This document shows positions 11,262 through 49,946 of a stretch of 64,000 nt of DNA, piece after piece. The stretch spans positions 36,997 through 100,996 of the forward strand of contig JAQVLT010000003.1 in NCBI GenBank assembly GCA_028704015.1, written 5' to 3'. The notes below the pieces were generated by a model that worked only from the letters and a program-made list of their open reading frames with translations, did no database searches and was not told the DNA's origin. The translations under genes were made by a program, and so were the position numbers. The first letter of the stretch is position 1; the number at the start of each line of letters is the position of its first letter. Source of the stretch: Patescibacteria group bacterium. GTDB lineage: Bacteria > Patescibacteriota > Patescibacteriia > Patescibacteriales > JAQVLT01.

Positions 11262-11295
11262 AGGTGTCCGACACCCTATAGGGTGTCGGACACCT
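11262..11295. terminator. perfect 34-nt palindrome between the MTase-like gene and alaS
   Basis: AGGTGTCCGACACCCTATAGGGTGTCGGACACCT. Flanked by an A-run and a T-run, 10 nt upstream of the alaS ATG. Confidence 0.5.
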
Positions 11296-13027: not shown

Positions 13028-15649
13028 CTATTTTTCTATTACCATCGCGTAATATTTATCTACATTCAAAACGTCTTCAATGTGCCAGCCGTTTTCACTG
13101 ACTTTTGAACTAACCGGATATTTCCAGACGGCGCGCAAATTTGCCGGCAAAAATAAATTGGAAATAATCTTATCGCCAATTGATCCTGGTTGTTTTTGAA
13201 CAAATAACGAATAAGGCAATAAACTTTTCTGGTCGGGATTTAACAAATTTTCTATTTTTCCGAACCAACCCGCATCATCCCGAGGAGCTTCTTTGATTGT
13301 AAATGGTAATTTGTATTTGAGCACAACTGTTTTTATTTCTCCCGGCTCAAGCATAAACCAATTGGCAAAAACTGTTTTTCCATTCTCATTGTAAATTTTT
13401 GTTTTATTTTCTTCGTCAATTCGCGCTAAATTTTCCGTCTGAGCAATAAAAGGATCAACGCTCAATGATTCTTCTGGCTGTTTAGCGATATATTCTTTTT
13501 CATCCAGCTCGCTAAAACCCTCAGCGGATAAAAGTTCGCTCCCAGCCGGCACATAAACTCTCATCCAATCTAAATTTCGCACGCCGGTGAACAAATCTCC
13601 GCGGCTGGCATTGTGTTTTCTTGTAATCACCACGGTGTCAATAATGCTTCCATCATCGGCTATTTCCGCTTGGTGATTTATTGTTTCGTCAATCACTTTG
13701 TCGCTTTTCTGCCCGTAAATATTGGTATTAACAACTGATAAATAATCCCATTTGTTTTCTTCCATTTTTCCATCCCAACCGCGTTGGGCGATTTCTTTTT
13801 CCAATTTTTCATCAGTAAAATAAAATAAAATATGTTTTTCATTCAAATTGCCTTCTATTGCTTTTAAAATTTCAACGAATTTGTCCTTGTTATTGATTCT
13901 CTTTGGCAATTCAACGAGAATAGCATCCATTAAATCGCGGATAATTTCCTTGGGTTTAGCTTTGTCAACCTCAACTTTTCCGGAGGTGGAATCTTTTAAT
14001 TTGTCCAATTCTTCTTCACTTAAATTTCCCGCTTCAACTATTTTCTGAGTAGTATCCCAAAAATTATCCGCGTCAATCACCACGCCATATTTGGCCGTCA
14101 TATCAATCGGGCCGAGTACTCTTAAAATTCTCTCTAATACTGTCGGGGTAAAACTGATCACACCATCAACGGTCGGGCCATCGCTTTTTTCATAAAACCA
14201 TTTCAGCTTCTCCGCGCTGGTCGGCCAATCAGGCCACCAATTCGCATTCCAAAAAAACCAGCGCGTCCCAATAAGCCAAAATGGTTCGGGCGCCAAAACT
14301 GATTCTCTAAGCCCGGCCGTAGTGTCATAACTCCCGCCAGCCGGAGCTTCAATATTTTTTATTTTTCCATTTTGAAAATCTACGAGCGCGTAACTGCCGA
14401 CAAAACCGCCCGAACCGCGCATTTCGGAATTATTTTGAAAAACTAACAAATAACGTTTATTGCCGGCAACACCTAAAAATTCTTTGAGCTTTTCAGAAAT
14501 CAAAATAAAATCTCCCAAGCCGGCTTCCAGATCGGCTGATTTATTTCTCAAAAAAATAAACTGCTCTCTGTATTCAATGGGTAAAACATCAATATCAATC
14601 TGCGATAAATGACTATTCAAACTCGCGGCCGCTTCACGTGATTTTTCTCCATATAAAACAAAATTATCTAAAATTTTTGCCATGTCTTTCTCGCCACCTG
14701 AAAATAAACTTTGCAAAGCTAAACTCATATTTTCACCCAAAATGGCGGCATTCTCGCCGGCGGCGAGCATTTCTCGACTATAAGCGGCCAAACGCGCTTC
14801 GTCGCTAGGCGCATAAGCTGCTAATCTAAAAAGCAAACTGTTTATTTCTCCAAGCTCTTTTTCAGCTGAAAAAAATTTCTCACTTGCTTCGGAAAAATTG
14901 TTTGAAGCTTTATTAAAATCCAGATTCATCACGTCTTTGGAGCCATTAATAAAACTGGAAAAACCCGCTTCGGAAGCTAACACGACTTTATTTTTTAAGT
15001 CGCTTAAATTTATAGTTTTATAAAAATCTAAAAATTTAAAAGGCAAAATGATGATGAGCAGAAGTAAAGCGAATTTGAAAATTCCCTTGAAGGAATGTTT
15101 TTTATTGTCATTCTGATCCCGCTCTAGCGGGAGAAGAATCTCGGGTTTATCTATAAATTTCTTTGATTTAGCTTTTGCGTTTAGTATTGTCTCTCGCGCT
15201 TTCTGAGATCCCTGCCTGCCGGCAGGCAGGCTTCGTCCTCTGTTTGCGACCAGAGGATTCAGGATGACAATCGCTTTTTTTATCATTTTCCCCACCCACT
15301 TAACCAAAAATACCGGCGCAAAAATAACGCCATAAAAAAAATATTTTAAATAAACAAAAATATTCCTGCAAAAAATTTTTATTCCGGAAAAAACCCGGGA
15401 AACTTTTTCGACTAAAATTTTGAATAAACCAAAAAACTTTTTAAATAAAACAAAAATAATAAATATCTTGGCAAAAAACTTGAAAACGTTAATAAATATT
15501 TCTTTAAAATCAACATGAACTTTTGAACTATTTTTATGTTTTGATGCTTTAATGTTCTCGCGCGGTTTCAAATCCACAACAAATCTAGACGCTCGATCAT
15601 TTGCGCCAATATTAAAACTGCTAGATTGTTTATCTTTTCCGACAAGCAT
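13028..15649 (-). CDS. DUF4012-like large membrane-anchored protein
   Basis: 873 aa. RYLLVFQNNSEMRGSGGFVGSYA resembles the DUF4012 core. Contains the 168-nt element at 15104-15271. Confidence 0.65.
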   Translation of the reverse strand: MLVGKDKQSSSFNIGANDRASRFVVDLKPRENIKASKHKNSSKVHVDFKEIFINVFKFFAKIFIIFVLFKKFFGLFKILVEKVSRVFSGIKIFCRNIFVYLKYFFYGVIFAPVFLVKWVGKMIKKAIVILNPLVANRGRSLPAGRQGSQKARETILNAKAKSKKFIDKPEILLPLERDQNDNKKHSFKGIFKFALLLLIIILPFKFLDFYKTINLSDLKNKVVLASEAGFSSFINGSKDVMNLDFNKASNNFSEASEKFFSAEKELGEINSLLFRLAAYAPSDEARLAAYSREMLAAGENAAILGENMSLALQSLFSGGEKDMAKILDNFVLYGEKSREAAASLNSHLSQIDIDVLPIEYREQFIFLRNKSADLEAGLGDFILISEKLKEFLGVAGNKRYLLVFQNNSEMRGSGGFVGSYALVDFQNGKIKNIEAPAGGSYDTTAGLRESVLAPEPFWLIGTRWFFWNANWWPDWPTSAEKLKWFYEKSDGPTVDGVISFTPTVLERILRVLGPIDMTAKYGVVIDADNFWDTTQKIVEAGNLSEEELDKLKDSTSGKVEVDKAKPKEIIRDLMDAILVELPKRINNKDKFVEILKAIEGNLNEKHILFYFTDEKLEKEIAQRGWDGKMEENKWDYLSVVNTNIYGQKSDKVIDETINHQAEIADDGSIIDTVVITRKHNASRGDLFTGVRNLDWMRVYVPAGSELLSAEGFSELDEKEYIAKQPEESLSVDPFIAQTENLARIDEENKTKIYNENGKTVFANWFMLEPGEIKTVVLKYKLPFTIKEAPRDDAGWFGKIENLLNPDQKSLLPYSLFVQKQPGSIGDKIISNLFLPANLRAVWKYPVSSKVSENGWHIEDVLNVDKYYAMVIEK
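15104..15271. mobile_element. 168-nt MITE-like element inserted in frame
   Basis: TIRs ATTGTCATTCTGA and TCAGGATGACAAT (12/13 match). Internal GATCCCTGCCTGCCGGCAGGCAGG at 15207-15230. Same architecture as 18263-18420. Confidence 0.65.
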
Positions 15650-15792: not shown

Positions 15793-17070
15793 CTAAAGAG
15801 ACAAAGAGTCTCCGGTCATGGGCGCATAAGCTTCGCACCCAAGCTCGCGCGCCAGGCAAACCACTGCCTGACAAGCTTGCGGACTGCCATGCTGGGCAAT
15901 GACAATCCGAGGTTTGACCATCTGAATCGCTTGGCGGATGGCCGCGGCATCGGAATGAGCGGAGAAGCTTAGCTTCTCAACGTGGCAGCCCAATCTGACG
16001 CGTTCTCCACCAACGGAAATATTGCCAGTTTTCAGAAGATCTCTCCCTCTTGTGTCCTCTGCCTGATAACCGGCCAAAATAAGGAGATTCTTCGGATCAG
16101 GACCTTTTACTCGGATGTATTCCATGATAGGACCGCCCTCAAGCATGCCGCTCGTGGCGACAAATACACCTTGCGAAATTAGGTGTATCTGGCGATCCCA
16201 TTGGGAAATCCGCCTGACGGAGTAAAGCGCTTGGCGAAGTGCTTCGGGATCCCGAAGATATTCCGAATGCGCGAGAAATACATCCGTCACATTATTCCCC
16301 ATGCCATCCAAATGCACCGGGCAAGAGAGGCCCATCTCGGCAAGGAGAAGGAGAATCTCTTGCGTCCTCGCCAGCGCGAAGGCGGCGATCATCACTGAAC
16401 CGCCACCAGCGATTGTCTCGGCAACCAGAGACTTAAATCTCTCTTCAACCGCAGTCCTGTCAGGATGCGACCTGTCCCCATAAGTCGCATCAATGATAAG
16501 AATCTCCGCATGCGGAAGACGCTCGCATTTTTTCACGAGGCGAGTATCCATGCTATTAAAATCGCCGGTATAAAGCAATGACCTCCTACCTTGCTTCAGA
16601 ATGATACTGACTGAGCCGGGAATATGGCCAGCCGGGAAAAACTGATAGTGGACATTGCCGCGACGACCCTTTTCTTTGTACCGCATGAGCGACAGTACTC
16701 TCTCAATGTCGCTCTCATTATATCGCGGCTCTTGCTTCTTCTTCGCCGCAATTTTCAGAGAGTCATAGAGAAGAAGCTCTGCCGCTTCTTTGGTGATCGG
16801 CGTACAGAAGACGGGGCAATTCAGCCCATCTTTTGCCAGTTCAGCCAAGCCGCCAACATGGTCAAGATGCCCATGAGAAATCGCCGCGAAGCTGATTTTC
16901 TCCAGCCGCGTGATTTTTTCGGGCCAAGCCATAATTTTGGTTCCGCCTATGTTCGCGGGTTTGAGTCCATAATCAAGAAGGATCCGAGACCCATCAGGAA
17001 ATACTGCTTCGATGCAGCTTCTCCCAACTTCGGATCCTGCACCGTGCATTGTTATCCCGATGTTTCCCAT
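15793..17070 (-). CDS. MBL-fold beta-CASP family hydrolase (RNA/DNA-processing nuclease type)
   Basis: HGHLDHVGG motif and C-terminal FSAHSDAAAI...AQHGSP (beta-CASP motifs B/C). GC-rich. The ORF track begins at GTG 17079; ATG 17070 follows GGAGA. Confidence 0.8.
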   Translation of the reverse strand: MGNIGITMHGAGSEVGRSCIEAVFPDGSRILLDYGLKPANIGGTKIMAWPEKITRLEKISFAAISHGHLDHVGGLAELAKDGLNCPVFCTPITKEAAELLLYDSLKIAAKKKQEPRYNESDIERVLSLMRYKEKGRRGNVHYQFFPAGHIPGSVSIILKQGRRSLLYTGDFNSMDTRLVKKCERLPHAEILIIDATYGDRSHPDRTAVEERFKSLVAETIAGGGSVMIAAFALARTQEILLLLAEMGLSCPVHLDGMGNNVTDVFLAHSEYLRDPEALRQALYSVRRISQWDRQIHLISQGVFVATSGMLEGGPIMEYIRVKGPDPKNLLILAGYQAEDTRGRDLLKTGNISVGGERVRLGCHVEKLSFSAHSDAAAIRQAIQMVKPRIVIAQHGSPQACQAVVCLARELGCEAYAPMTGDSLSL

Positions 17071-17131
17071 ATTGACCACATCTCCTCTCGCTTTGATTTT
17101 TAGCTAAAAAGAACAACTTTACAGATTATGA

Positions 17132-18262: not shown

Positions 18263-18420
18263 TTTTGTCATCTCGAATCCCCCGGTCGCAACCGGGGGTG
18301 AGAGATCTATAATACTTTGTTTTCCTATAAAGCATTATTTATGCGCTTCGCCGTATATTAAAGATCCCTGCCTGCCGGCAGGCAGGTCTCGCACGCCTCG
18401 GGCGGGTCGAGATGACAAAA
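18263..18420. mobile_element. 158-nt MITE-like element (intergenic copy)
   Basis: Perfect 14-bp TIRs TTTTGTCATCTCGA / TCGAGATGACAAAA. Internal hairpins CCCCCGG..CCGGGGG and GATCCCTGCCTGCCGGCAGGCAGG (18363-18386). Confidence 0.65.
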
Positions 18421-19840: not shown

Positions 19841-21049
19841 TTATTTTAACATATTTTTATAAACCGCCACTGTCTCCTCTGCCGCCTTATCCCAGCTATA
19901 TTTTTTTATCTGTTCAAAACCTTTTTGAATTAAATTTTGTCGCAAATTTTCGTCCTTGATTATTAATTTAATTTTTTTTATCATATCATCTTCATTTTCG
20001 GGATCAAAATAAATTGCCGCTTCGCTCAGAACTTCAGGAAGGCAAGATCTATCTGAACTTACTACCGGACAGCCCTGGCTCATAGCTTCTAAGGGCGGCA
20101 AACCAAAACCTTCATAAAGCGAAGGAAAAACATAGGCTGAGGCGTTTTGAAATAAAAATTTCAAATCTTCGTCCGGCACAAAACCGGGAAAATTAACCGG
20201 CGAATCTTCATCGTCTTTAAACAATCTTAATCCGCGAGCATAGTCTTTCACGCGTTTATAAAAATAATCTTCTTTGCCAACTAAAACCAATTTTAAATCA
20301 CTAAACCTTTCACGCAATTTCGGTAAAATTTTAATAAGCATTTCCAAATTCTTATGCGGATAAGCATTGCCAACGTAAAGGATAAACCTCTTTCCTCCCT
20401 CTCCCCCGTCCCCTCTCCTAATTAGGAGAGGGGTGTCTGAGCGAAGTGAAGACGAGGAGAGGTACTGGACTGGGGGTGAGGGAAAAGTTGTCCCTTCATA
20501 AATCATCACGATTTTTTTCGGCTTGACTTTGAATTGTTTTATTATATCTTCTTCTGTATATTTTGAAACAGCAATAATTTTTTTGGCACGCTTAACCGCT
20601 GTCCAGATAACAATTTTATAAAACAAATTTTTCAGTTTATACAGCCAAGGGCTCAAAGTACTCGCGCGTTGGGTGGGATATTTAGTGAGAATCAAATCCG
20701 GAATGGTAACGACAAATTTTACGGGCGTTAATATCGGCACATTAAAATGCGTAAAATGCATCAAACTAACATGTTCGCGCCAAATTAAAAACGGGAGCAT
20801 TATTTGCTCCTTCAAAGTATACCAGCGCGCATTGGCTAATACCTTCTTAACACCCTGGCGCGGCACGACAAAACTATCGTAATTGTCCTTATACAAAAAA
20901 ATTACGTAATCATTTTCCGTATCTTTCCTAATAACCCGATCAACAATTTCCTGCGTGTATCTCCCCAATCCTTTACCGACAGGGCCGTAGAAGCGAGCGT
21001 CAATGCCGATCACGTTATTTTTCTTTTTTAATTGCTCATGTCTACTCAT
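19841..21049 (-). CDS. GT4-family glycosyltransferase
   Basis: EGFGLPPLEAMSQGCPVV (E-x7-E). Interrupted by a palindromic-element peptide. Confidence 0.82.
   Translation of the reverse strand: MSRHEQLKKKNNVIGIDARFYGPVGKGLGRYTQEIVDRVIRKDTENDYVIFLYKDNYDSFVVPRQGVKKVLANARWYTLKEQIMLPFLIWREHVSLMHFTHFNVPILTPVKFVVTIPDLILTKYPTQRASTLSPWLYKLKNLFYKIVIWTAVKRAKKIIAVSKYTEEDIIKQFKVKPKKIVMIYEGTTFPSPPVQYLSSSSLRSDTPLLIRRGDGGEGGKRFILYVGNAYPHKNLEMLIKILPKLRERFSDLKLVLVGKEDYFYKRVKDYARGLRLFKDDEDSPVNFPGFVPDEDLKFLFQNASAYVFPSLYEGFGLPPLEAMSQGCPVVSSDRSCLPEVLSEAAIYFDPENEDDMIKKIKLIIKDENLRQNLIQKGFEQIKKYSWDKAAEETVAVYKNMLK
20386..20485. repeat. about 100-nt variant of the CCCCTCTCCTAATTAGGAGAGGGG element, in frame
   Basis: Core palindrome at 20410-20433. 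Translated ...SLRSDTPLLIRRGDGGEGG... Confidence 0.75.
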
Positions 21050-23708: not shown

Positions 23709-23780
23709 GGACGCTTAGCTCAGCTGGTTACCCGCCCGTACCGAACGCGGTACGTTCGGGCGGGGAGCGCCTCGTTTACA
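23709..23780 (+). pseudogene. tRNA-Val 5' half (nt 1-37) disrupted by a 34-nt GC palindrome in the D-loop
   Basis: GGACGCTTAGCTCAGCTGGTTA [CCCGCCCGTACCGAACGCGGTACGTTCGGGCGGG] GAGCGCCTCGTTTACA. Apart from the insert it is identical to 24027-24064. Confidence 0.75.
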
Positions 23781-23794
23781 ACTAATAATTTAAT

Positions 23795-24049
23795 ATGTAC
23801 ACAGTGTATATTTTAAAAGATGAAAATGGAAATTTGTATAAAGGCATGACAAGTGATATAAAACGAAGATTAAATGAACATCGGCGAGGAAAAACACAAA
23901 CTACTAGAAGAATGAAAAATATCAAATTAGTTTATCAAGAAGAGCTGGCTACATTTGATGCTGCACGCAAAAGAGAATTATATTTGAAAACTGCCGCTGG
24001 AAGAAAATTTATAAAAGAAAAATTAAGGACGCTTAGCTCAGCTGGTTAG
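23795..24049 (+). CDS. small GIY-YIG nuclease family protein (UPF0213/YhbQ-like)
   Basis: 84 aa. YTVYILKDENGNLYKGMTSDIKRRLNEHRRGK... The last 7-8 codons and the stop lie inside tRNA-Val. Confidence 0.85.
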   Translation: MYTVYILKDENGNLYKGMTSDIKRRLNEHRRGKTQTTRRMKNIKLVYQEELATFDAARKRELYLKTAAGRKFIKEKLRTLSSAG

Positions 24050-24103
24050 AGCGCCTCGTTTACACCGAGGAGGTCGAGGGTTCGATCCCTTCAGCGTCCA
24101 CCA
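24027..24103 (+). tRNA. tRNA-Val(TAC), CCA encoded
   Basis: Hand-folded. GGACGCT/AGCGTCC acceptor, D-arm GCTC..GAGC, anticodon stem CCTCG/CGAGG with loop TTTACAC, T-loop TTCGATC, then ACCA. Confidence 0.92.
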
Positions 24104-24185: not shown

Positions 24186-25805
24186 ATGAAGAATGAAAAA
24201 AAACCGGAAAAGGTTGCCTTGTTGAGCGTTTTCAACAAGGACGGGATTGTGGAGTTTGCTCGCACCCTCAAGAACATGGGCTGGAAACTTCTTGCTTCCG
24301 GGGGCACGGCGCAGACGCTCAAAAACGCCGGGCTGGAAGTCAAGGATGTCGCGGACCTGGTCGGCGGCGGCGCTATTCTTGGACACCGCGTGGTCACGCT
24401 CTCACGGGAAATCCACGCCGGCCTTTTGGCGCGTGACATCCCTGAGGACAACGCGGAGCTGGACCGGCTGGGGATCCCGCGCATCGATCTTCTTTGCTCG
24501 GATCTCTACCCGCTTGAGCTGGCCATTGCCGCAGGTAAAACCATGCCCGAGGTCATTGAGATGACCGACATCGGCGGACCCACGCTGATCCGTTCGGCGG
24601 CAAAAGGCCGCCGTATTGTCATCTGCAACCCAAGGGACCGCATGGTTGTTCTCGGCTGGATGACCAGCGGCGAGCTGGACAAGGAAAGCTTCTTAAACAT
24701 GCTTGCCGCCAAAGCCGAAATGACCGTCGCCCGCTACGCACTATCTTCGGCGCGTTTCATCAGCGGCGGCGAGTTCGACGGTTTCCTCGGCCAACGCTAT
24801 CTTGAATGCCTATACGGGGAAAACGCCCCGCAGACTCCGGCCGGCGTCTTTAGCGCCCGTACAAGCGACCTGCTGGCGCTGGACAAACTCCGGCTCTTGA
24901 CCGAAACGTCGTCAAGCTACAACAATACGTGCGACCATGACCGGCTGCTCCAGACAATCACGCACATCGCCGCCGGCTTTGACCTCAACTTCGGCGAAGT
25001 GCCATATATCGCCGTGGCGGTCAAACACGGCAATCCCTGCGGCGTTGGCGTTGGAAAGACGCCGGAAGAAGCTCTCAAGAAGATGATTGACGGCGATCTT
25101 CGCGCCATTCTCGGCGGCATCGTCATGACCAACTTCCTGATAGACGAGACGGCCGCGAAAATCCTGGCCGTCTACCAGGTGCCCGTAAGGAAAAGGCGCT
25201 TGCTGGACGGGATTATCTGCCCGGTCATCACAGATAAGGCCGTTGCGATGCTCGAACGGAAAAAAGCCAAATGCCGGATTCTCATGAACCCTGCTCTAGC
25301 GGAACTGAACGAGAAATCACTGGACACGGCTCCCCGCCTTCGCTGCGTCCGCGGCGGATTTATGGTTCAGCCGAACTACACTTTCATTCTGGATCTGAAC
25401 CACCCGGAAATGAAAAAGTTCGGCCAGGCCACGCCTGAACAGAAACGCGCTATGGTGCTTGCCTGGGCTATCGCAGCCACGGCCAACAGCAACACCATCG
25501 CGCTTGTGAAGGACGGCATGCTTGTCGGCCTGGGATCTGGCCAGCAAGACCGTGTCGGCGCTTGCAAGGTGGCCTGTTTCCGAGCTGACGAATCCGGCCA
25601 TGACATCTTTGGGGCGATTGCGGCAAGCGATAGCTTCTTCCCCTTTGATGATGGCCCGCGCGCCCTTGCCGACAGGGGCGTCAAGGTGATCTTTTCTACC
25701 TCTGGCTCGATCAACGACCAAGCGGTCATTGACTTCTGCCAGGAAAACGGCATCGTGCTCTACATGCTTCCGGACAAGGTGGCCAGGGGTTTCTTCGGCC
25801 ACTAA
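24186..25805 (+). CDS. purH: bifunctional AICAR transformylase / IMP cyclohydrolase
   Basis: 539 aa. MGS-like N-terminus ALLSVFNKDGIVEFARTL..LASGGTAQTL and AICARFT domain. SD GGAGT upstream. GC-rich. Confidence 0.9.
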   Translation: MKNEKKPEKVALLSVFNKDGIVEFARTLKNMGWKLLASGGTAQTLKNAGLEVKDVADLVGGGAILGHRVVTLSREIHAGLLARDIPEDNAELDRLGIPRIDLLCSDLYPLELAIAAGKTMPEVIEMTDIGGPTLIRSAAKGRRIVICNPRDRMVVLGWMTSGELDKESFLNMLAAKAEMTVARYALSSARFISGGEFDGFLGQRYLECLYGENAPQTPAGVFSARTSDLLALDKLRLLTETSSSYNNTCDHDRLLQTITHIAAGFDLNFGEVPYIAVAVKHGNPCGVGVGKTPEEALKKMIDGDLRAILGGIVMTNFLIDETAAKILAVYQVPVRKRRLLDGIICPVITDKAVAMLERKKAKCRILMNPALAELNEKSLDTAPRLRCVRGGFMVQPNYTFILDLNHPEMKKFGQATPEQKRAMVLAWAIAATANSNTIALVKDGMLVGLGSGQQDRVGACKVACFRADESGHDIFGAIAASDSFFPFDDGPRALADRGVKVIFSTSGSINDQAVIDFCQENGIVLYMLPDKVARGFFGH

Positions 25806-25829
25806 TCAAAATTCTTTTAATCCTCCAGC

Positions 25830-25876
25830 AGGACTTTCAAAGTTTCTTACGAGAAACTACGAAAGTCCTTTTTTTC
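25830..25876 (+). terminator. hairpin AGGACTTTC...GAAAGTCCT plus T7
   Basis: Read directly after purH. Confidence 0.6.
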
Positions 25877-26024
25877 TTGCTTTTTTCTTAAAATTTATCT
25901 AATATAAAGTTAGAAAGGAGGGCCAATCTTATCGTAAGATTCGGCTCTTTTTGCACCTTGAAAAAATCGATTTTGAAAACCGTAGAGATAAACTGACAAC
26001 CCCTCAACGGAAAGGACTGATGCA

Positions 26025-27509
26025 ATGGACGAACGGTATACCATAGAAAAAATTACGAAAATCTGGTCGACTGAGAACAAGCTCAGTCTCTGGCAAAAAA
26101 CCGAACTCATGGCAATCAAAGCCAGGGTGATTCTCGGCCTTGTCGCCGAGACGATTTTCCTGAAGATCGAGGAAACGCTCAAGCGAATCCCGATTGACAT
26201 CCCGTGGTGGAAAAACCGCGACAAAGAGATCCGCCACGACCTTAACGCCTTTCTCGATGAGAGACTCCGTCACCTGACCGAGGAATTACAGCGCTACCTG
26301 CACGAGGACATGACCTCCTACGATACGGAGGAACCGGCTTTTGTGTGCATGCTCAGGGAGTCAGTGCAGATTGTCATCAGGAGTCTGGAAGAAGTCTGCA
26401 AAACTCTGAAAGCAATGGCACTCAAATACCGCTACACAATCATGAACGCCAGAACCCACGGACAGGAAGCCAAGCTGCAAAGCTTTGGTAAAAGATGCCT
26501 TACCTGGTACGTGATTTTGCAATTAGACCTCAACAACCTGAAGAATACGGTCAGTTCTCTCAAGTATGCCAAGCTTTCCGGCGCTGCCGGGAACTACGGC
26601 GACATGGATCCGGCGGTGGAGATCGAAACTCTGAAACAGCTTGGATTCGAACCGCTCTACGGCACACCCCAGATCCTTCCCCGCGAGCTTTTTGCTCCAC
26701 TGGCGCAAGCGCTCTGCCAGATCGTGCAGTCGTTGGACAAAATCGCGACCGATATTAGATTAGGCGCGCGTAGTGGACGGCCGATCTTGCAAGAGCCGTT
26801 CGGAAAAAAGCAAAAGGGCTCTTCCGCCATGCCGCATAAAAAAAACACCATCCGCACCGAGCAGATGGAAGGCATGGCGCGCATGGCGCGCGGCTACATG
26901 AATATGATCCTGGAAGCGATCAAAACCTGGGAAGAACGGGCTATTGAACAATCCTGCGTGGAAAGAGTGGCCTGGCCTGATCTCTTCCATGTGGTCGTTC
27001 ATTCACTGAAAACCATGAACGCAGTACTAACCGGCCTAACCGTTTATCCCGACAATATGCTTCTGGAAATCGCTGATTCCTGCGGAACTTACGCTTCGGA
27101 AGAAGCAAAAAAGCTTCTCCGGGAATTCCTGGCGGAACGCGGATTGTCAAGCGAAGTGGCCTACCGTATCGTGCAACTCGCCGCCTTCAATGCTCTGGAA
27201 CTTAGCGGCGGTTTCCAAAGATTGCGTGATGGCATTCCTTCAACGATAGAAGAAGCGGAAGTGGCGTTAAAGGAAGCTTCTAGTTTGGATCGACCAAGGA
27301 GAGAAAGCATCCAGGACATCATCCCTTTAGGCCATTTGCGCCACTCACCCCAACTCGAAGCTACCGAGAAAGAAATCGAGGGATGGAACGTGATGCTGTT
27401 CACCATCTTCTCGAGTCGCAGAATTCGCGATCGCTGGAACCAAATCTTCCGGCCGTCATACCAGCTAAGACGCGAACCTTTTCTCTACGAAAAGATACTT
27501 GGAAAATAA
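26025..27509 (+). CDS. purB: adenylosuccinate lyase
   Basis: Fumarate-lyase signature GSSAMPHKKNT. N-terminus RYTIEKITKIWSTENK. Confidence 0.9.
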   Translation: MDERYTIEKITKIWSTENKLSLWQKTELMAIKARVILGLVAETIFLKIEETLKRIPIDIPWWKNRDKEIRHDLNAFLDERLRHLTEELQRYLHEDMTSYDTEEPAFVCMLRESVQIVIRSLEEVCKTLKAMALKYRYTIMNARTHGQEAKLQSFGKRCLTWYVILQLDLNNLKNTVSSLKYAKLSGAAGNYGDMDPAVEIETLKQLGFEPLYGTPQILPRELFAPLAQALCQIVQSLDKIATDIRLGARSGRPILQEPFGKKQKGSSAMPHKKNTIRTEQMEGMARMARGYMNMILEAIKTWEERAIEQSCVERVAWPDLFHVVVHSLKTMNAVLTGLTVYPDNMLLEIADSCGTYASEEAKKLLREFLAERGLSSEVAYRIVQLAAFNALELSGGFQRLRDGIPSTIEEAEVALKEASSLDRPRRESIQDIIPLGHLRHSPQLEATEKEIEGWNVMLFTIFSSRRIRDRWNQIFRPSYQLRREPFLYEKILGK

Positions 27510-27535
27510 CCCCCCCCACCGAAAGGAGACCGCCC

Positions 27536-28093
27536 ATGAATCCTAAATTTGTACCGCAAGTCGTAATCATCGCCGGAAGCGACACGGATCTCAAAGCGAT
27601 TGAAGATGCCGGTATGTTGAAGGCCTTCCAGGAAATGAGCATAACCTACGCTCTTTCCTTTCTCTCCGCACACCGCCATCCTGATGATCTGAAGAACTAT
27701 TTACTCGCCATGGAAAAGGAAGGTACTCTAGTTTTCATCGGGATCGCCGGCATGTCCGCTGCTCTTCCTGGAGATATGTCAGCAATTCTCAAAAACAAAC
27801 GTCCTGTCATCGGAGTTCCTTTGATCGCACCCGACGGATTCAGCGGTCTGGATGCTCTTTTCTCCATGATCCGTTTGCCAGCAAGCACTGCCGTGGCCGT
27901 CCCGGGAATCGGCAAAGCAGGACTGAAAAACGCGACGATCCTTGCTTGCCAGATTCTTGGAGTAGAGCGGCCCGAAACACAGGTCGCTTTGAACAACTAC
28001 CTCACGAAAAAAGCGGCCAAAAAGCCACCCCAACCCGACTTCGAAATTTTTAACGGGAAAACCGTTCACCACCAACATAAAGGAGGAGCATAA
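27536..28093 (+). CDS. purE: PurE (AIR carboxylase / N5-CAIR mutase family)
   Basis: VVIIAGSDTDL, SAHRHPDD, AGMSAALPG, PVIGVPL. The ORF track starts at 27383, but ATG 27536 follows GAAAGGAGA. Confidence 0.85.
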   Translation: MNPKFVPQVVIIAGSDTDLKAIEDAGMLKAFQEMSITYALSFLSAHRHPDDLKNYLLAMEKEGTLVFIGIAGMSAALPGDMSAILKNKRPVIGVPLIAPDGFSGLDALFSMIRLPASTAVAVPGIGKAGLKNATILACQILGVERPETQVALNNYLTKKAAKKPPQPDFEIFNGKTVHHQHKGGA

Positions 28094-28096
28094 CCC

Positions 28097-28987
28097 ATGA
28101 TCCAGCCCCTGTTCGAAACCAACTTTCCCGGCCTTCCCGTTCCTCGTCGCGGCAAAGTCCGCGACATCTATGACCTAGGTGATTTTCTGCTCATGGTCGC
28201 CACTGACCGGCTATCAGCTTTCGACGTGGTCATGAAGGACCCGATCCCAGGTAAAGGCATTACCCTCACGCAGATGACCTTGTTCTGGCTGGAAATGTTC
28301 GCAGATATGGTGTTGAACCACTTGGTTACGGCTGATCCCGCCCAGTACCCGGACATCTGCAAACCCTACGCCGACATTCTTGTCGGCCGCAGCATGCTGG
28401 TCAAAAAATGTGCGCCCCTGCCAGTGGAATGCATCGTCCGCGGCTACCTTAGCGGTTCCGGCTGGAATGATTACAAAAAGACCGGATGCGTCTGCGGCAT
28501 CCAGCTTCCGCCCGGCCTTCTGGAATCGGCGCAGCTTCCTGAACCGATTTTCACGCCTTCTACCAAGGCTGAGCAGGGCAAGCACGACGAGAACATTTTG
28601 TTTGAACAAGCAGTAAAACTACTCAGCCGCGAGACCGCAGAAAAAATCCAAAAACTCTCACTCGCGCTCTACCAACGGGCCGCGGCTCATGCCCGCAGAC
28701 GCGGCATCATCATAGCGGACACGAAATTCGAGTTCGGGCTTGATAAAGACGGCAACATCGTGCTGATAGACGAGGTTCTCACCTCGGATTCATCCAGGTT
28801 TTGGCCCGCCGCCCAATACGAACCCGGACATGGCCAGCCGAGCTTTGACAAACAAGGCGTCCGCGACTTTCTGGTTAAGATCGGCTGGGACAAAAAGCCG
28901 CCTGCACCCAAACTCCCGATCGGCGTCATCGCCGAGACGCGCGAGAAGTACCTGAAGGCTCTCCGCCTCCTCACCGGCCAATTCTAA
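28097..28987 (+). CDS. purC: SAICAR synthetase
   Basis: GKVRDIYD, LIDEVLTSDSSRFW. Confidence 0.92.
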   Translation: MIQPLFETNFPGLPVPRRGKVRDIYDLGDFLLMVATDRLSAFDVVMKDPIPGKGITLTQMTLFWLEMFADMVLNHLVTADPAQYPDICKPYADILVGRSMLVKKCAPLPVECIVRGYLSGSGWNDYKKTGCVCGIQLPPGLLESAQLPEPIFTPSTKAEQGKHDENILFEQAVKLLSRETAEKIQKLSLALYQRAAAHARRRGIIIADTKFEFGLDKDGNIVLIDEVLTSDSSRFWPAAQYEPGHGQPSFDKQGVRDFLVKIGWDKKPPAPKLPIGVIAETREKYLKALRLLTGQF

Positions 28988-32063: not shown

Positions 32064-33929
32064 TCATGTTCTTTTTACATACGTCGTATGTAAAACTTTA
32101 TGTTCCAAATCTTTATTTTTCTTAAGCCAATCAAGCGCTTCTATTACTCCTTTATTTTCATGCGCGCGCCTGACCTTTTTATCTTTATCAATTTTATAAA
32201 GCGCTTCAATACGTTTCCGGCGAATTTCCTGCGTTGTTGGGATTGGCTGTCCGCCGCCGCCGATGCAGCCGCCCGGACAGGCCATTACTTCAATATAATC
32301 ATAATTATTAAGATTTTTTAAAACTTCGTCAACACAGCCGATGCCGTTTACCACAGCCACGCGTAATTTCTTTCCCGCCACGGTTACCGTAGCCTCTTTC
32401 ACTCCTTCCAGTCCCCTAACTTCTTTAAAATCAATCCGGCGCTCGCAGATTTTTGCTTTACTTTTTTCACAAGCTAAGGCCTGTGCGGCTCGCAAGGCTG
32501 ATTCCATTACACCTCCGCTTCCGCCGTAAAGCACGGCGGAGCCGGAAAATTCTCCCAAAGGATTGTCGGCGGTTGTTTTCTCTATATTGGCAAAATCAAT
32601 ATTATTTTTTTTCATGAGCCAGGCAAACTCGCGCGTGGTAATCACGTAATCAACCGGCGCGTTGCCATTAATCTTCAATTCCGGACGCGAAACTTCAAAC
32701 TTTTTTGCTGTGCACGGCATCACTGAAACTACGATAATGTCTTTTGGTTTAATGCCCATTTTTTCCGCCCAATAAGTTTTTACTAATCCGCCGTTATGAA
32801 CATGCGGGGAACGAGCTGTGGTTAAATTCGGAATCAACTTCGGATGATAAAATTCTACATATTTCACCCAGGCTGGACAACAGGAAGTAATCATCGGCAC
32901 CTCCCCCCCGTCCCCTCTCCTAATTAGGAGAGGGGTGGCGGAGCCGGGGAGAGGTTTGCGGATACGAGCCAGTCTTTCTAATAATTCCTCCGCTTCCACC
33001 ATCGTTGTCACATCCGCGGCAAAACTGGTATCAAAAACATAATCAAAGCCCAAAGCCCGCAAAGCTGAAACAATTTGTTCGGTTACTATCTGGCCATAAG
33101 GCAAACCAAATTCCTCGCCAATACTCACACGAATTGATGGCGCGAATTGCGCCACTACCACTTTATTTTCTGACTTTTTCTTCTTCAAAATTTCTTCCAC
33201 TTTATCCCAATGCGCTTGTTCCTGCGCCGCGCCCACCGGACAATGCAGGGCACACTGGCCGCAATAAATGCAATCAATTGATTTATTTTTTTCTGACAAT
33301 AAATCTTTCGCGCGAAACAATGGCGGCTCTAATATTTTATTACTTTTGAGTGGTATTATTTCTTGTTCACTTCCCTTGCCTTTTAATTCTAGATAGTTTA
33401 TCTTCTGCATCAACGAACAAGCGTCAAGGCAATTGCGACAATCAATGCATTGCGTACCGTCAATTTCCACGGCATTAGAAAATTTATAAATTTTTCTCTT
33501 TCCTTTACGGTCAGGGAAACGGCAAATTTCCAGTTTGTATCGGTCTGCTAAATTCAAGAGTTCGCAATTCACGCGCCAGATGCAAGTCGGGCATTTTTCA
33601 ATATGCTCGGCAAAAATTAATTCAATATTCAGGTTGCGCGCTTTCTTCACCCGATCCGTGTCAGTGCGTATTTCCATACCGCTTTTAACTTTGGTTTTAC
33701 ATGACATTGCTAATTTTGCTCGACCATTAATTTCTACGCAGCAAACACGGCAATTGGCTTTTGGCGGAAAATCTGGATGGCTGCAAAGCGCTGGAATAAA
33801 AATATCGTTTTGGCGCGCTACATTTAAAATCGTCCGCCCTTCTTCGCATTTTATTACCTTATTATTAATTTTTATTTTTACCTTTTTCATAATTTTATTT
33901 AAAACATTCACAAATTGTTTTTCTGTCAA
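32064..33929 (-). CDS. hydA: [FeFe]-hydrogenase catalytic subunit (HydA/HndD-like)
   Basis: 2Fe-2S and 4Fe-4S Cys clusters. H-cluster motifs TSCCPAW, MPCTAKKFE, ACPGGCIGGGGQP. Alternative start at ATG 33890 (MKKVKIKIN). Confidence 0.88.
   Translation of the reverse strand: MTEKQFVNVLNKIMKKVKIKINNKVIKCEEGRTILNVARQNDIFIPALCSHPDFPPKANCRVCCVEINGRAKLAMSCKTKVKSGMEIRTDTDRVKKARNLNIELIFAEHIEKCPTCIWRVNCELLNLADRYKLEICRFPDRKGKRKIYKFSNAVEIDGTQCIDCRNCLDACSLMQKINYLELKGKGSEQEIIPLKSNKILEPPLFRAKDLLSEKNKSIDCIYCGQCALHCPVGAAQEQAHWDKVEEILKKKKSENKVVVAQFAPSIRVSIGEEFGLPYGQIVTEQIVSALRALGFDYVFDTSFAADVTTMVEAEELLERLARIRKPLPGSATPLLIRRGDGGEVPMITSCCPAWVKYVEFYHPKLIPNLTTARSPHVHNGGLVKTYWAEKMGIKPKDIIVVSVMPCTAKKFEVSRPELKINGNAPVDYVITTREFAWLMKKNNIDFANIEKTTADNPLGEFSGSAVLYGGSGGVMESALRAAQALACEKSKAKICERRIDFKEVRGLEGVKEATVTVAGKKLRVAVVNGIGCVDEVLKNLNNYDYIEVMACPGGCIGGGGQPIPTTQEIRRKRIEALYKIDKDKKVRRAHENKGVIEALDWLKKNKDLEHKVLHTTYVKRT
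32898..32958. repeat. 57-60-nt nested palindromic element, in frame in hydA
   Basis: ACCTCCCCCCCGTCCCCTCTCCTAATTAGGAGAGGGGTGGCGGAGCCGGGGAGAGGT. Near-identical to 42044-42100. Confidence 0.85.
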
Positions 33930-40349: not shown

Positions 40350-40475
40350 GCTTAACTCGCGCCCAGCCGTAAACGGCAGGGCTATTTTGTTAAAGCCCCA
40401 TTAATGGGGCTTCCGCCTATCTAGCCCAATCCATTTATGGCCATGCCTACCGGCAGGCAGGTTGGGCGTAGAAAT
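40350..40475. repeat. GC-rich palindromic block in the rpsB 5' leader
   Basis: AAGCCCCATTAATGGGGCTT plus GCCCAA..CCTACCGGCAGGCAGG..TTGGGC. Shares the CCGGCAGGCAGG core with the other elements. Confidence 0.6.
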
Positions 40476-41574: not shown

Positions 41575-42765
41575 TTAAATCTCAATTATTCCCCCTCCCA
41601 ATATTTCATCACCTTTATAAAATACCGCACTCTGCCCAGCCGTAATCGCCCGTTCGGGTTTCTCTAGTCGTGCGAATAGGGCATTATCTTGCTCCCACGC
41701 GACATTACCCTGTTCTTTTTTAGCTCCCCTCGCCTGGCTGGCCTGCCTGCCGGCGAGGCAGGGAGAGGGACAGGGGGCGAGGGTGCATTTTATCGGCTTA
41801 TGCCGATATCTTATCACTACTTCACATTTAAACGGAAATTTCGGCTCTGCACACGAAACCCAATTCACGTTGCTGAGATAAAATTTATCGCTATAAAGTA
41901 GCGGGTCATCATGGTCGCTCGTCACATATAAAATATTTTTTTTATAATCGCACTTCACTACGTAATACGGCCCGGTGCCGCCAATCTCCACACCGCGCCT
42001 CTGCCCAATCGTGTACAACGGCAGGCCTTTGTGCTCGCCGACGACCTCTCCCCCGTCCCCTCTCCTAATTAGGAGAGGGGTGGCGGAGCCGGGGAGAGGT
42101 TTAGCGGAGGTGAGGGCAATAATCTTACCTGGTTTTAATTTTATTTTTCCTTTCAAAAATTCATTGTGCTCCCCGGGAAGAAAACAAACATCCTGGCTCT
42201 CGGTTTTTAAATTTGGCAAACCCGCTTTGGCTGCAATTTTTTTAATATCTTCTTTTTTGTAATCCCCAAGCGGAAATAAAATCTTTTGTAATTTTTCCTG
42301 TGTTAAAGTATATAAAAAATAACTCTGATCCTTACTCTCGTCCTTCCCCTTTATCAATTTATATAAATACTTTTTACTTTTTACTTTATACTTTTTACTT
42401 TTTACGTAATGACCTGTTGCCAAATAATCCGCTCCCAGTTCGCGCGCGATTTGTAAAAGCTTTCCAAATTTTATAAATTTATTGCATTTGACACACGGAT
42501 TCGGCGTAATGCCGCGCTCATAACTTTCTAAAAAATAATTAATAATTTCTTTTTTAAACTCCGGCGCCAGATTGACTGGATAAAATTTTATTCCCAACTT
42601 CTGACAGACATGCCGCGCCGCGTCCTCGGCATTTTTATTTTCCACGCCCAAACGCATAAAAACTCCCATTACTTCATAACCGGCTTTTTTTAATATCATT
42701 GCGGTAACGGAAGAATCCACTCCGCCTGATATGGCAACTATTATTTTTCTTTTTTTCTTTATCAT
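41575..42765 (-). CDS. mnmA: tRNA 2-thiouridine(34) synthase
   Basis: PP-loop VAISGGVDSS, NPCVKCN, TIGQRRG, AITAGQSAVFY. Two element insertions. Confidence 0.9.
   Translation of the reverse strand: MIKKKRKIIVAISGGVDSSVTAMILKKAGYEVMGVFMRLGVENKNAEDAARHVCQKLGIKFYPVNLAPEFKKEIINYFLESYERGITPNPCVKCNKFIKFGKLLQIARELGADYLATGHYVKSKKYKVKSKKYLYKLIKGKDESKDQSYFLYTLTQEKLQKILFPLGDYKKEDIKKIAAKAGLPNLKTESQDVCFLPGEHNEFLKGKIKLKPGKIIALTSAKPLPGSATPLLIRRGDGGEVVGEHKGLPLYTIGQRRGVEIGGTGPYYVVKCDYKKNILYVTSDHDDPLLYSDKFYLSNVNWVSCAEPKFPFKCEVVIRYRHKPIKCTLAPCPSPCLAGRQASQARGAKKEQGNVAWEQDNALFARLEKPERAITAGQSAVFYKGDEILGGGIIEI
41724..41786. repeat. GC-rich palindromic insertion (CCTGCCTGCCGGC family) in frame in mnmA
   Basis: CCCTCGCC...GCCTGCCTGCCGGCGAGGCAGG...GGCGAGGG. 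Translated PCPSPCLAGRQASQARG. Confidence 0.7.
42044..42100. repeat. 57-nt nested palindromic element, in frame in mnmA
   Basis: ACCTCTCCCCCGTCCCCTCTCCTAATTAGGAGAGGGGTGGCGGAGCCGGGGAGAGGT. Translated KPLPGSATPLLIRRGDGGEV. Confidence 0.85.
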
Positions 42766-44318: not shown

Positions 44319-45497
44319 TTATAATTTAAAATTTAAAATTTTACTGTATTCCTTTCCCACTCTTTCCCAACTAAATTTTTCCACTCTTTTCAAACCTTTC
44401 GCGATTAAGCTTTCACGCAATTTTTGATTATTTAAAACTTCTTCAATCGCTTTGGCGATTTCATTAATATTAAAAGGATTTACCAGTATTGCCGCCTCGC
44501 CGACAACTTCCGGCAGACTGGAAACCGCGCTCGCGATTACCGGCGTGCCCGAGGCCATAGCTTCAAGCGGCGGAAAACCGAATCCTTCATAAAAAGACGG
44601 GAAAACAAAAACCGAAGCAAGTTTGTAGAGAGCCGGCTTGTCTTCGTCATCAACATACCCCAAGAATATTATATCATTTTTATACTTAGATTTCTCGCGC
44701 TCCGCCAAAATACTCTCATATTTCCAGCCCATGCCACCAGCTATAATCAACTTTTGACAACCTGCCTGCCGGCAGGCAAGGTTAACATTTGACAATTGAC
44801 TTCTATACTTATTGTAAGCCTGAATAAGGCCAACGATATTTTTTCTCGGCTCAACCGTACCCAAAAATAAAATGTATTTTTCTGGAAGGTTATATTTCTT
44901 TCTAATATTTTGAAATTTGGGAATTGAAAATTGAAAATTGAAAATTTTAAAGCGTTCATCAACACCCGAGTATATTACCCTCGCTTTCTCCTCTGGCACC
45001 CCACATAATTCCACAACATCCCGTCTGGTGTTTTCCGATATCGCAATTACTAAATCAAACTGCTTAATCAATTTTTTTACATTCAAGGCACGGTGCCAAA
45101 TATTTTTTCGCCAGCTGAAATACTCCGGATACCGCAGAAATGACAAATCATGAATGGTGATAATTTTCCGGCAATCCGAGGAAAGCGACAAAAAATTAAT
45201 GTGCGGCGCCCAAAAAACATCCACTCCGCCTAGCAACTTGTCAATCTTCGGCCAGCAAAAAATTTTTTGCAAAATATAATTAAAAATTTTATTCGGATAT
45301 TTGGTTCTATAAATTTTAACATTGGGCTGATCAAATTTCGGCAACCGCTCGCTGATATCGCGATAAGAATTGTAATATAACAAATATTCATTACTCTTAT
45401 CCTCTGCTAAAATTTCTTTAACTAAAGCCAACGTGTACTCCGACACGCCACTATATCGCTTATCCATGAGTGTCCGAATATCAATGCCAATTTTCAT
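44319..45497 (-). CDS. GT4-family glycosyltransferase
   Basis: [20 protein letters not shown]. Contains the insert [12 protein letters not shown]. Confidence 0.85.
44759..44783. repeat. 25-nt palindrome of the CCTGCCTGCCGGCAGGCAGG family, in frame
   Basis: AACCTGCCTGCCGGCAGGCAAGGTT. Confidence 0.75.
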
Positions 45498-49424: not shown

Positions 49425-49487
49425 TTTTTTATTTTTTCTCTCCTTTTAATAAGGAGAGATTTAAATGAGACTTTAAATTTCACTAAT

Positions 49488-49946
49488 CTCAAGGCAAGCT
49501 ATAAGCCGGATTCTGTCTAGGACAATCATCTATCTTGTCCAGCGATTGCTCGCGGGATCATGCGAACTACTTTTCTTTACCATTTCCTTCATCCCCTCTC
49601 CTTCACAAGGAGAGGGTTAGGGTGAGGTAAATTTGTTCTTGCTTCAAGCAGGGTTTACCATCCACGGCTGTCACCAGCCGAAAAAAATTGTAGCCATTTA
49701 TCTAGAACAAATGACATCAATTAACTTTTCACCTTTCTTTTTGACTTACAATAGATTAAGATAAATCTTAAATCTAAAATCGTAAATCAAAAATAGTATA
49801 GTCTCTGTGGCACTTTCCCTAAGATTACTCCTGGTTGCTGTTAGCAACTGCTTTTTTATTTTTAGCGATTTAATTCGCAAAAATGAAGTCCGGACTTTCC
49901 TCCCCGTCTTTCAATGAAAAACGGAGCGATTGTCTACTTACCTTGA
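49488..49946 (-). ncRNA. rnpB: RNase P RNA (bacterial type A-like)
   Basis: Minus strand has GAGGAAAGTCCGGAC (49902-49888), AGTGCCACAGAGA, GGTAAACCC..AGCAAG..CAAAT and ACAGAATCCGGCTTA (49516-49502). P1 pairs CAAGGTAAG with CTTGCCTTG. The ends are approximate. Confidence 0.85.

Follow-up and report, generated by a model that had tools for sequence, protein, structure and literature searches.

A 64,000-nucleotide stretch of a Patescibacteria contig (JAQVLT010000003.1; referred to here as the window) contains the tRNA-modification gene mnmA, with two short GC-rich palindromic inserts within its coding sequence. We consider it highly probable that these are small non-autonomous elements, GC-rich nested palindromes that multiply in AT-rich Patescibacteria and are translated as loops at permissive turns of their host proteins. 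An earlier note on this DNA had described two in-frame palindromic inserts in mnmA, and both are confirmed; measured between the outer ends of its arms, each has 57 nt, equal to 19 codons. They are 67-79% GC, compared with 36% for the genome (the window is also ~36% GC, apart from two GC-rich islands), their lengths preserve the frame (57 = 3 x 19), and both are free of stop codons in the host frame. The gene, the inserts and the features next to them are located as follows:

41575..42765, minus strand: mnmA coding sequence, intact, 396 aa (Pfam, alignment to the E. coli MnmA structure 2DER, AlphaFold2 model)
42712-42729, minus strand: MnmA PP-loop SGGVDS, kept
42481-42501, minus strand: MnmA NPCVKCN motif, kept
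42181-42192, minus strand: MnmA DVCF motif, kept
42101..42117, minus strand: second arm-like stretch, partly decayed, adjoining insert 1 (codon-level comparison)
42044-42100, minus strand: insert 1, family A nested palindrome, 57 nt (palindrome, repeat and alignment evidence)
41727..41783, minus strand: insert 2, nested palindrome, 57 nt, with arms CCCTCGCC / GGCGAGGG
41677..41718, minus strand: imperfect tandem duplication of 7 codons, KEQGNVA/WEQDNAL, 11/21 nt identical

All three MnmA Pfam domains are present in the mnmA open reading frame (ORF; E 8e-67, 2e-17, and 2e-19), and the protein aligns over its full length with E. coli MnmA (2DER, E 1e-71). The closest database protein, from an NCBI 'Patescibacteria group bacterium' metagenome-assembled genome (MAG), is 100% identical, and in a search across 5.8 billion proteins the runner-up is 69% identical. 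No second mnmA copy was found within the 64-kb window by tblastn. We give next to no credence to the possibility that mnmA is a decaying pseudogene or that the inserts are assembly artefacts; the contig does derive from a MAG and our view of it is confined to 64 kb, but the ORF is full-length, the fold is predicted to be retained, all columns without variation among 21 orthologues are kept, and like elements occupy the same sites in many independently assembled genomes and metagenomes.

Insert 1 reads, on the coding strand, as an arm ACCTCTCCCC, then GGCTCCGCCA, the core CCCCTCTCCTAATTAGGAGAGGGG, the dinucleotide AC, and a second arm GGGGGAGAGGT. It is translated as KPLPGSATPLLIRRGDGGE, which as (K)PLPGSATPLLIRRGDGGE corresponds to residues ~220-240, and it is stop-free in a single frame per orientation. 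Folded as RNA it has a predicted energy of -42.5 kcal/mol (z -5.6 relative to shuffled controls), and there are three occurrences of the family A core CCCCTCTCCTAATTAGGAGAGGGG in the window and none in 100 shuffles. Relative to E. coli MnmA the insert is an 18-residue gap positioned exactly at GKIITV|DGDEIGEH, in agreement with the short TVDGDEI segment that the earlier note gives for the E. coli protein, and it occupies an 18-19 aa gap when the insert-free orthologues are compared as well. In insert 2 the arms enclose CCTGCCTCGCCGGCAGGCAGG (coding strand) and CCCTGTCCCTCTC, with CCTGCCTCGCCGGCAGGCAGG differing by one base from the 20-nt family B palindrome CCTGCCTGCCGGCAGGCAGG. This insert is translated within TLAPCPSPCLAGRQASQARGA (residues ~328-349), is stop-free in all six frames, and has a predicted RNA folding energy of -35.6 kcal/mol (z -3.1). 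The strings quoted for it previously (GCCTGCCTGCCGGCGAGGCAGG, CCCTCGCC, GGCGAGGG, and the translation ...PCPSPCLAGRQASQARGAKKEQ) are all present; the element is there, but the 63 nt assigned to it included 3 nt too many on each side, and instead of lying just before AITAGQSAVFY it ends 17 to 24 residues upstream (17 if counted from the ...KKEQ end).

Both inserts have arms of a common type, CCTC[A/T/G]CC ... GG[T/A/C]GAGG. Those of insert 2 carry G/C at the variable position and surround a family B hairpin. Because arms like those of family A are combined here with a family B module, the assignment of insert 2 to another family holds for its inner hairpin module and not for the arm type or length, which the two inserts share; it is a different module within the same type of frame. 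Across other genomes the plan is a left arm (A)CCTC[A/T]CCCC, a core hairpin, a variable module that is often itself a hairpin (e.g. CCGCCAGCTGGCGG), and a right arm GGGG[T/A]GAGG(T), with elements found in both orientations. A metagenome scan for the combination of an arm and the family B core returned 120 stretches, mostly chance matches in GC-rich contigs, and only the ~20 low-GC matches are real composite palindromes, e.g. L143, L178, L220, L168, and L232. The variable base does not covary between the left and right arms (30 complementary and 36 mismatched pairs), and the common form of the arms has an asymmetric A.A mismatch.

At both sites there are signs of further change around the insert. 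Site 2 is 26 codons longer than in insert-free orthologues, which comprise the 19 codons of the element and the 7-codon imperfect tandem duplication, one copy of which matches the native KEQGNAL of orthologues P0004 and P0006; we tentatively view 41677-41718 as a duplication of the native KEQGN(A/L) segment. At site 1, the stretch just outside the insert reads GCC CTC ACC TCC GCT AA on the coding strand (encoding ALTSA) and aligns with ACCTCACCCC AAG of P0002, the closest orthologue, which carries a different and longer element at this site. This alignment suggests that site 1 was already occupied in the common ancestor, and the ALTSA stretch is probably the leftover of an earlier occupant. 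The near-identity of the present insert 1 to a copy in the hydA gene of the window suggests a recent arrival or a conversion at an occupied site.

An AlphaFold2 model of MnmA, built from a 21-sequence alignment, has a mean predicted local distance difference test score (pLDDT) of 82 and a target-normalised template modelling score of 0.87 to 2DER/2DEU. The pLDDT falls below 50 only at residues 190-195, a native loop immediately ahead of, and overlapping, the conserved Asp-Val-Cys-Phe motif (192-195), at residues 223-236, within insert 1, and at residues 338-359, which span insert 2 and the duplication. The strands on either side are 213-217 and 240-245 for insert 1 and 325-331 and 363-372 for insert 2; since each is placed between paired strands, both are predicted to replace tight hairpin turns, in the central PRC-barrel domain at site 1 and in the C-terminal barrel at site 2. 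The inserts preserve the frame, are absent from insert-free orthologues, and appear in the model as low-confidence segments between paired strands with the predicted fold retained, as would be expected if they are tolerated as loops, a suggestion made in the earlier note.

Related elements are present elsewhere in the window. Arm motifs are found 6 times (0.6 in shuffles), and there are four family A-type copies in the 64 kb where none is expected, all four of them inside genes. The family B palindrome has four matches, besides the insert 2 variant, and none in 100 shuffles. The copies outside mnmA are the following:

32899..32957, minus strand: sister copy to insert 1, within hydA (32064-33929), which encodes an [FeFe]-hydrogenase, 98% identical over 59 nt
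20398..20482, minus strand: longer family A copy in a family 4 glycosyltransferase (GT4) gene (19841-21049), read as FPSPPVQYLSSSSLRSDTPLLIRRGDGGEGG
49587..49628, minus strand: family A-like copy in the RNase P RNA gene (49486-49945), right arm decayed
15211..15230: family B 20-nt palindrome CCTGCCTGCCGGCAGGCAGG in a DUF4012 gene (13028-15649, minus strand), giving LPAGRQG in the host frame
18367..18386: family B palindrome, intergenic, with 30 nt (93%) in common with the 15206-15235 copy
40442..40461: family B palindrome with two mismatches, intergenic between rpsB and the next gene
44761..44780: family B palindrome with one mismatch in a second GT4 gene (44319-45497, minus strand), read in frame as LACRQAG

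The presence of the insert 1 element in hydA, as earlier proposed, is clear, with 58 of 59 bases identical; the hydA copy has the same orientation and frame as insert 1 (KPLPGSATPLLIRRGDGGEV) and constitutes an 18-aa gap relative to the solved HydA1 structure 8A6T. The copy in the RNase P RNA gene has the organisation ACCTCACCC-TAA-CCCTCTCC-TTGTGAA-GGAGAGGGG, and the region containing it is 57 nt long, compared with 34 nt in the Rfam model. In total this gene has 460 nt, relative to a model of 367 positions, and there are AT-rich extensions too.

Searches with the inserts against Rfam (E up to 10) gave only weak matches to microRNA-type hairpin models, and an exhaustive HMMER search with a 35-aa stretch of insert returned two unrelated repeat proteins and nothing else. 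Inteins were rejected, the inserts being far too short and without intein motifs. An origin of the family B 20-mer in a sequencing adaptor was likewise rejected, as no familiar adaptor fits, the copies vary, and they are read in frame. A role of the intragenic copies as transcription terminators was considered and rejected.

Beyond the window, the 20-nt family A core is present in 86 stretches of GTDB species-representative genomes, mostly Patescibacteria MAGs, in both orientations, with ~10 copies in each of several Patescibacteria MAGs; a few of the genomes are nominally from other phyla. STD1_219 and SO_2017_SWC_4 are among the MAGs rich in elements. When a copy is counted as ORF-embedded if it lies in an ORF of 150 codons or more that extends for 40 codons or more to either side of it, 22 of the 86 are in long ORFs and 64 are outside. 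The hosts of the embedded copies are PolA, LigA, MurG, RsmA, a PP-loop enzyme, and MnmA (site 1), and the position is often equal in orthologues of different genomes. That loops of this kind are ordinary lineage-specific extensions, evolved in place and not mobile, is scarcely credible in view of this distribution, the 98% identity of insert 1 to the hydA sequence, the disparity in GC content between inserts and genome, and palindromes that are far more stable than their shuffles. It is the case that beta-turn loops vary in length in many protein families, and that some inserts at the MnmA sites are AT-rich and non-palindromic (e.g. P0005 and P0016 at site 2).

Stop codons (TAA or TAG) interrupt the family A core in all but one of three frames, and all 22 ORF-embedded copies read PLLIRRG, the sole stop-free frame, although this follows from the definition of an unbroken ORF and is no independent test. 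The frame distribution of genomic copies, put forward as a way to detect selection, is therefore of the stop-free kind by definition, and the lengths of the copies are unusable for the multiple-of-three comparison. The proportion of core copies in ORFs (26%) is well below the ~88% of the window that is coding (binomial p ~1e-34). Depletion from coding DNA fits with either purifying selection or a preference for intergenic locations, with compatible copies surviving. Strong purifying filtering of insertions, as the earlier note had suggested, has support in this depletion and in the single stop-free frame of the core.

A different possibility is that the inserts are removed from the RNA or bypassed in translation, in the manner of 'byp' elements, and so are absent from the protein. 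The 'byp' elements are GC-rich and come from Magnusiomyces mitochondria. The elements described here form very stable mRNA hairpins, and similar ones are present in RNA genes, both in RNase P RNA and in the tRNA loops of related loci. However, the two mnmA inserts, the hydA copy, and the two genic family B copies are all stop-free in the host frame, and the lengths that can be measured are multiples of three, including differences of 51, 21, and 3 nt between two alleles considered below. Bypass elements, by what Lang and colleagues reportedly described in 2014, typically break the frame; the mnmA inserts, being 57 nt and stop-free in the host frame, have neither frame break nor stops. Because frame and freedom from stops are preserved wherever measurable, which would be needless if the sequence were removed, we regard excision or bypass as very unlikely.

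We examined the two sites in an alignment of the 120 best MnmA homologues, mostly from Patescibacteria, scoring a site as occupied from 6 extra residues upwards. In the basal state each site is a 10-residue segment (for site 1, e.g. PIKTLDGKIV; for site 2, e.g. VVTKEQGNAL), and turns of 10 residues are present at both sites in E. coli and S. pneumoniae MnmA and in many Patescibacteria orthologues. Site 1 and site 2 are each occupied in 42/120 homologues, and 23 are occupied at both. The inserts are diverse and enriched in Pro (3.2x), Arg (2.3x), Ser (2.1x), and Gly (1.4x), and peptides such as PLLIRRG, PPLIKGR, and PLLAKEG correspond to translated CCCCTC..GAGGGG hairpins. In several cases for which the orthologue DNA was inspected, the PLLIRRG-like strings are GC-rich palindromes of the insert kind; one homologue (P0019) has related elements at sites 1 and 2, and a MnmA that is 49.5% identical (L050, a GTDB genome) has the same 20-nt core at site 1. 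The earlier reading of two independent hits in mnmA thus stands in that two inserts are real, but both lie at recurrent hotspots, and site 1 was probably already occupied.

Occupancy changes repeatedly. Parsimony on a neighbour-joining tree requires a minimum of 19 state changes for site 1 and of 26 for site 2, and close relatives differ, with 16 and 0 extra residues in a pair that is 86% identical and 32 and 3 in a pair that is 84% identical. Turnover is seen most directly with P0007 and P0016, whose genes have ~99% DNA identity outside the hotspots and whose proteins are 97% identical. At site 1, P0016 has an additional 51-nt hairpin module and P0007 an additional 21-nt module, and at site 2 a segment of ~48 nt is swapped outright; the differences between these alleles are all in frame. 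New modules are found within or next to elements already in place (L001 compared with L035; P0016 compared with P0007), and in MurG of L001 (6374-6422 region) a complete element interrupts, exactly at its apical loop (TAATTA), the element that L035 carries, a clear instance of nesting. Resident elements may therefore act as landing pads for new modules.

The loops could alternatively be kept because they are useful, either as an Arg/Gly-rich grip on tRNA or as mRNA hairpins that tune translation or stability. The hotspots are in the central and C-terminal domains, which we take to be the domains of E. coli MnmA (2DER) that contact tRNA, the inserts are Arg-rich, 35% of homologues are occupied per site, and the two sites tend to be occupied together (odds ratio 3.8, p 0.001). 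This correlation is equally explained, however, by lineages with active elements, many orthologues are without any insert, and the same peptide is found in an unrelated hydrogenase and glycosyltransferase and in PolA, LigA, and MurG. The insert sequences are moreover very diverse and their presence varies in close relatives, even between alleles that are 97% identical. We consider a useful role improbable, although less so than excision or bypass.

Two other regions of MnmA vary in length among the homologues. A third recurrent site, a hairpin at residues ~121-139, has at least 6 extra residues in 22/120; in the window gene this turn has an AT-rich tandem duplication, KSKKY-KV-KSKKY (42366-42401, residues ~122-133), with 5 more residues than E. 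coli. N-terminal extensions of at least 6 residues are present in 24/120 homologues (alignment A1, columns 1-40), and a motif like SPHKSLRDSAGQAG is common to at least four of the extended homologues (P0014, P0019, P0057, and P0111). These extensions resemble either GC-rich elements translated from a position upstream of the true start or the result of mis-called starts.

According to our preferred explanation, an element would consist of short imperfect arms, (A)CCTC[A/T/G]CCCC ... GGGG[T/A/C]GAGG(T), around one or more exchangeable hairpin modules, and would move either by a transposase acting in trans or by recombination or template switching between copies. Copies within genes would persist only if their length is a multiple of three, if they are stop-free in the host frame, and if the product tolerates the added residues, and the survivors would be translated with the host protein as Pro/Gly/Arg/Ser/Leu-rich and probably disordered loops (one example of an insert-host junction peptide is ...ATPLLIRRGDGGEVVGEHK). 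In MnmA, two beta-hairpin turns would be such permissive places, colonised repeatedly across the phylum and with turnover even between strains, and an occupied site seems to draw further modules. The inserts themselves would presumably be close to neutral.

Several considerations weigh against this explanation. We infer translation of the inserts from sequence. No target-site duplication is evident at the mnmA and hydA junctions, where there is no related empty site, or at the P0016/P0007 module junctions, and no partner transposase was seen among the ~16 of the 58 window ORFs scanned against Pfam. Precise gain and loss of modules is seen in a single pair of close alleles, P0007/P0016. If resident elements are landing pads, there would be a targeting component in the hotspot pattern, and targeting could thus contribute to it besides selection. 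In the survey of other genomes, coding calls were made by ORF length and not from annotation, the exact-core search favours well-preserved copies, and the arm-to-arm lengths of the ORF-embedded copies are not all multiples of three, the junctions being uncertain where there are no empty sites.

A broader proposition, to which we incline slightly less than to its opposite, is that a phylum-wide kit of GC-rich hairpin modules remodels the beta-turns of essential enzymes and the loops of tRNAs and RNase P RNA, with turnover between strains, that it is a major and undescribed source of variation in protein length in these reduced genomes, and that the family B module, also found in phages, is mobilised by a hairpin-specific mechanism with a broad host range. 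The modules of the kit would include CCCCTCTCC-TAATTA-GGAGAGGGG, CCTGCCTGCCGGCAGGCAGG, and CCGCCAGCTGGCGG within CCTCNCC/GGNGAGG arms, and they would nest into one another. The exact 20-nt CCTGCCTGCCGGCAGGCAGG is present in 35 stretches of IMG/VR viral contigs (L092-L126), with GC contents from 38% to 68% and sometimes several copies per contig; examples are L116 (2284-2303), L123 (515-534), and L093 (8616-8635). ARAGORN calls a tRNA-Met in L116 whose long variable arm is formed by this palindrome, and in L123 the palindrome is in an apparent tRNA D-loop. The viral count is far above chance for a 20-mer, which suggests a hairpin moving across very different hosts.

Some further features of the window involve palindromes or segments of unusual composition. 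The family B palindromes at 15206-15235 and 18362-18391 lie within 30-nt repeats (AGATCCCTGCCTGCCGGCAGGCAGG...) that are 93% identical and flank a 3.1-kb segment of ~50% GC, containing a gene for a beta-CASP metallo-beta-lactamase RNase (15793-17079) and a 272-aa ORF without known function; the segment may be an insertion with these palindromes at its ends. A 5'-half duplicate of tRNA-Val(UAC) is located at 23709-23775, its D-loop split by a 34-nt GC palindrome CCCGCCCGTACCGAACGCGGTACGTTCGGGCGGG, and is followed by an 84-aa ORF for a GIY-YIG nuclease (23795-24049, Pfam E 1.5e-13) that overlaps the intact tRNA-Val gene at 24027-24103. The 23709-24103 region looks like a mobile nuclease cassette that targeted a tRNA gene. 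Directly downstream of tRNA-Val is a 4.8-kb block (24186-28987) of 52-56% GC, compared with 36% for the genome, containing purH, purB, purE, and purC; it is probably a horizontally acquired purine-synthesis island. A perfect 34-nt palindrome of neither family, AGGTGTCCGACACCCTATAGGGTGTCGGACACCT (11262-11295), is intergenic and just downstream of a 646-aa ORF (9312-11252, minus strand), and may be a terminator.

In-frame palindromes in coding sequences have so far been regarded largely as a peculiarity of Rickettsia, and they are now seen in another, very large bacterial radiation. We found no literature linking Patescibacteria, or the candidate phyla radiation, with palindromic elements, miniature transposable elements with inverted repeats (MITEs), repetitive extragenic palindromic (REP) sequences or elements of the type of the Rickettsia palindromic elements (RPEs), in a coverage that leaves out most subscription journals. 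The many thousands of Patescibacteria genomes constitute natural experiments, with near-identical alleles that differ just by hairpin modules; such alleles could reveal the mode of movement of the elements, the protein positions at which insertions are tolerated, and the route from selfish DNA to new loops in essential enzymes. The inserts also inflate and diversify protein lengths, generate spurious low-complexity 'motifs' such as PLLIRRG, and can mislead alignments, domain boundaries, and gene calls.

Several known systems share some of these properties. The coding palindromes of Nematomorpha mitochondria are also inverted repeats within coding sequences that are read through in frame, but they are long and perfect (up to 284 bp), belong to animal mitochondria, and do not form a dispersed short family (PMC6649704). 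MITEs such as ERIC/RU-1 and Correia/NEMIS (PMC2229807, PMC2759123) are similarly non-autonomous, with terminal inverted repeats, stable stem-loops, and occasional open-frame intragenic copies; classical MITEs, however, are 100-200 bp, usually with TA target duplications and a traceable insertion sequence family, none of which is seen here. REP sequences and bacterial interspersed mosaic elements, mobilised by REP-associated tyrosine transposases (PMC3733652), are likewise short GC-rich imperfect palindromes in many copies and sometimes in clusters or mosaics, but REPs are extragenic and have a GTAG or CGTC tag at one end (PMC3733652). No such tag was found at the ends of the elements described here, which start (A)CCTC and are often intragenic, and in these respects they are distinct from REPs.

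The GC clusters of yeast mitochondrial DNA, such as GC42 (PMC4478555), resemble the elements in several features, being short GC-rich mobile hairpins in an AT-rich genome that are polymorphic between strains and whose palindromic modules merge and shuffle; the mechanism of spread is unsettled in both (PMC4478555). They differ in being mitochondrial, mostly intergenic, and associated with an AG target dinucleotide (PMC4478555), whereas the Patescibacteria elements are bacterial, often in frame in essential genes, and have no recognised target motif.

RPEs, the subject of Ogata et al. (2000, 2002) as summarised in PMC2229807 and PMC10969869, share with the Patescibacteria elements an organisation as dispersed palindromes with terminal inverted repeats and long stem-loops, an own open frame, and locations that are intergenic or in frame in housekeeping genes, in the reduced AT-rich genome of a host-dependent bacterium. 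In Rickettsia, 19 in-frame insertions have been described, with copies also in tmRNA and RNase P RNA, and an RPE-bearing guanylate kinase (gmk) is translated and active (PMC2229807, PMC10969869). The elements reported here correspond to this type in being dispersed inverted-repeat stem-loops that are in frame and absent from orthologues, with intergenic copies and copies in RNA genes, that of RNase P RNA included; RPEs are regarded as additions to the protein surface that are tolerated, and this may be so here, with retention of the fold predicted by AlphaFold2. By length and host (57 nt, Patescibacteria) they are set apart from RPE-1 to RPE-10, a separation made without comparison of consensus sequences. 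They are about a third as long, at 57 nt (up to ~85 nt) compared with 105-146 bp for RPEs, are strongly GC-rich, and have exchangeable hairpin modules in short arms. They are also distributed phylum-wide, across numerous lineages of Patescibacteria and apparently into some other phyla, whereas RPEs belong to a single genus, and they make recurrent use of the same turns in orthologous proteins, with turnover at the level of strains.

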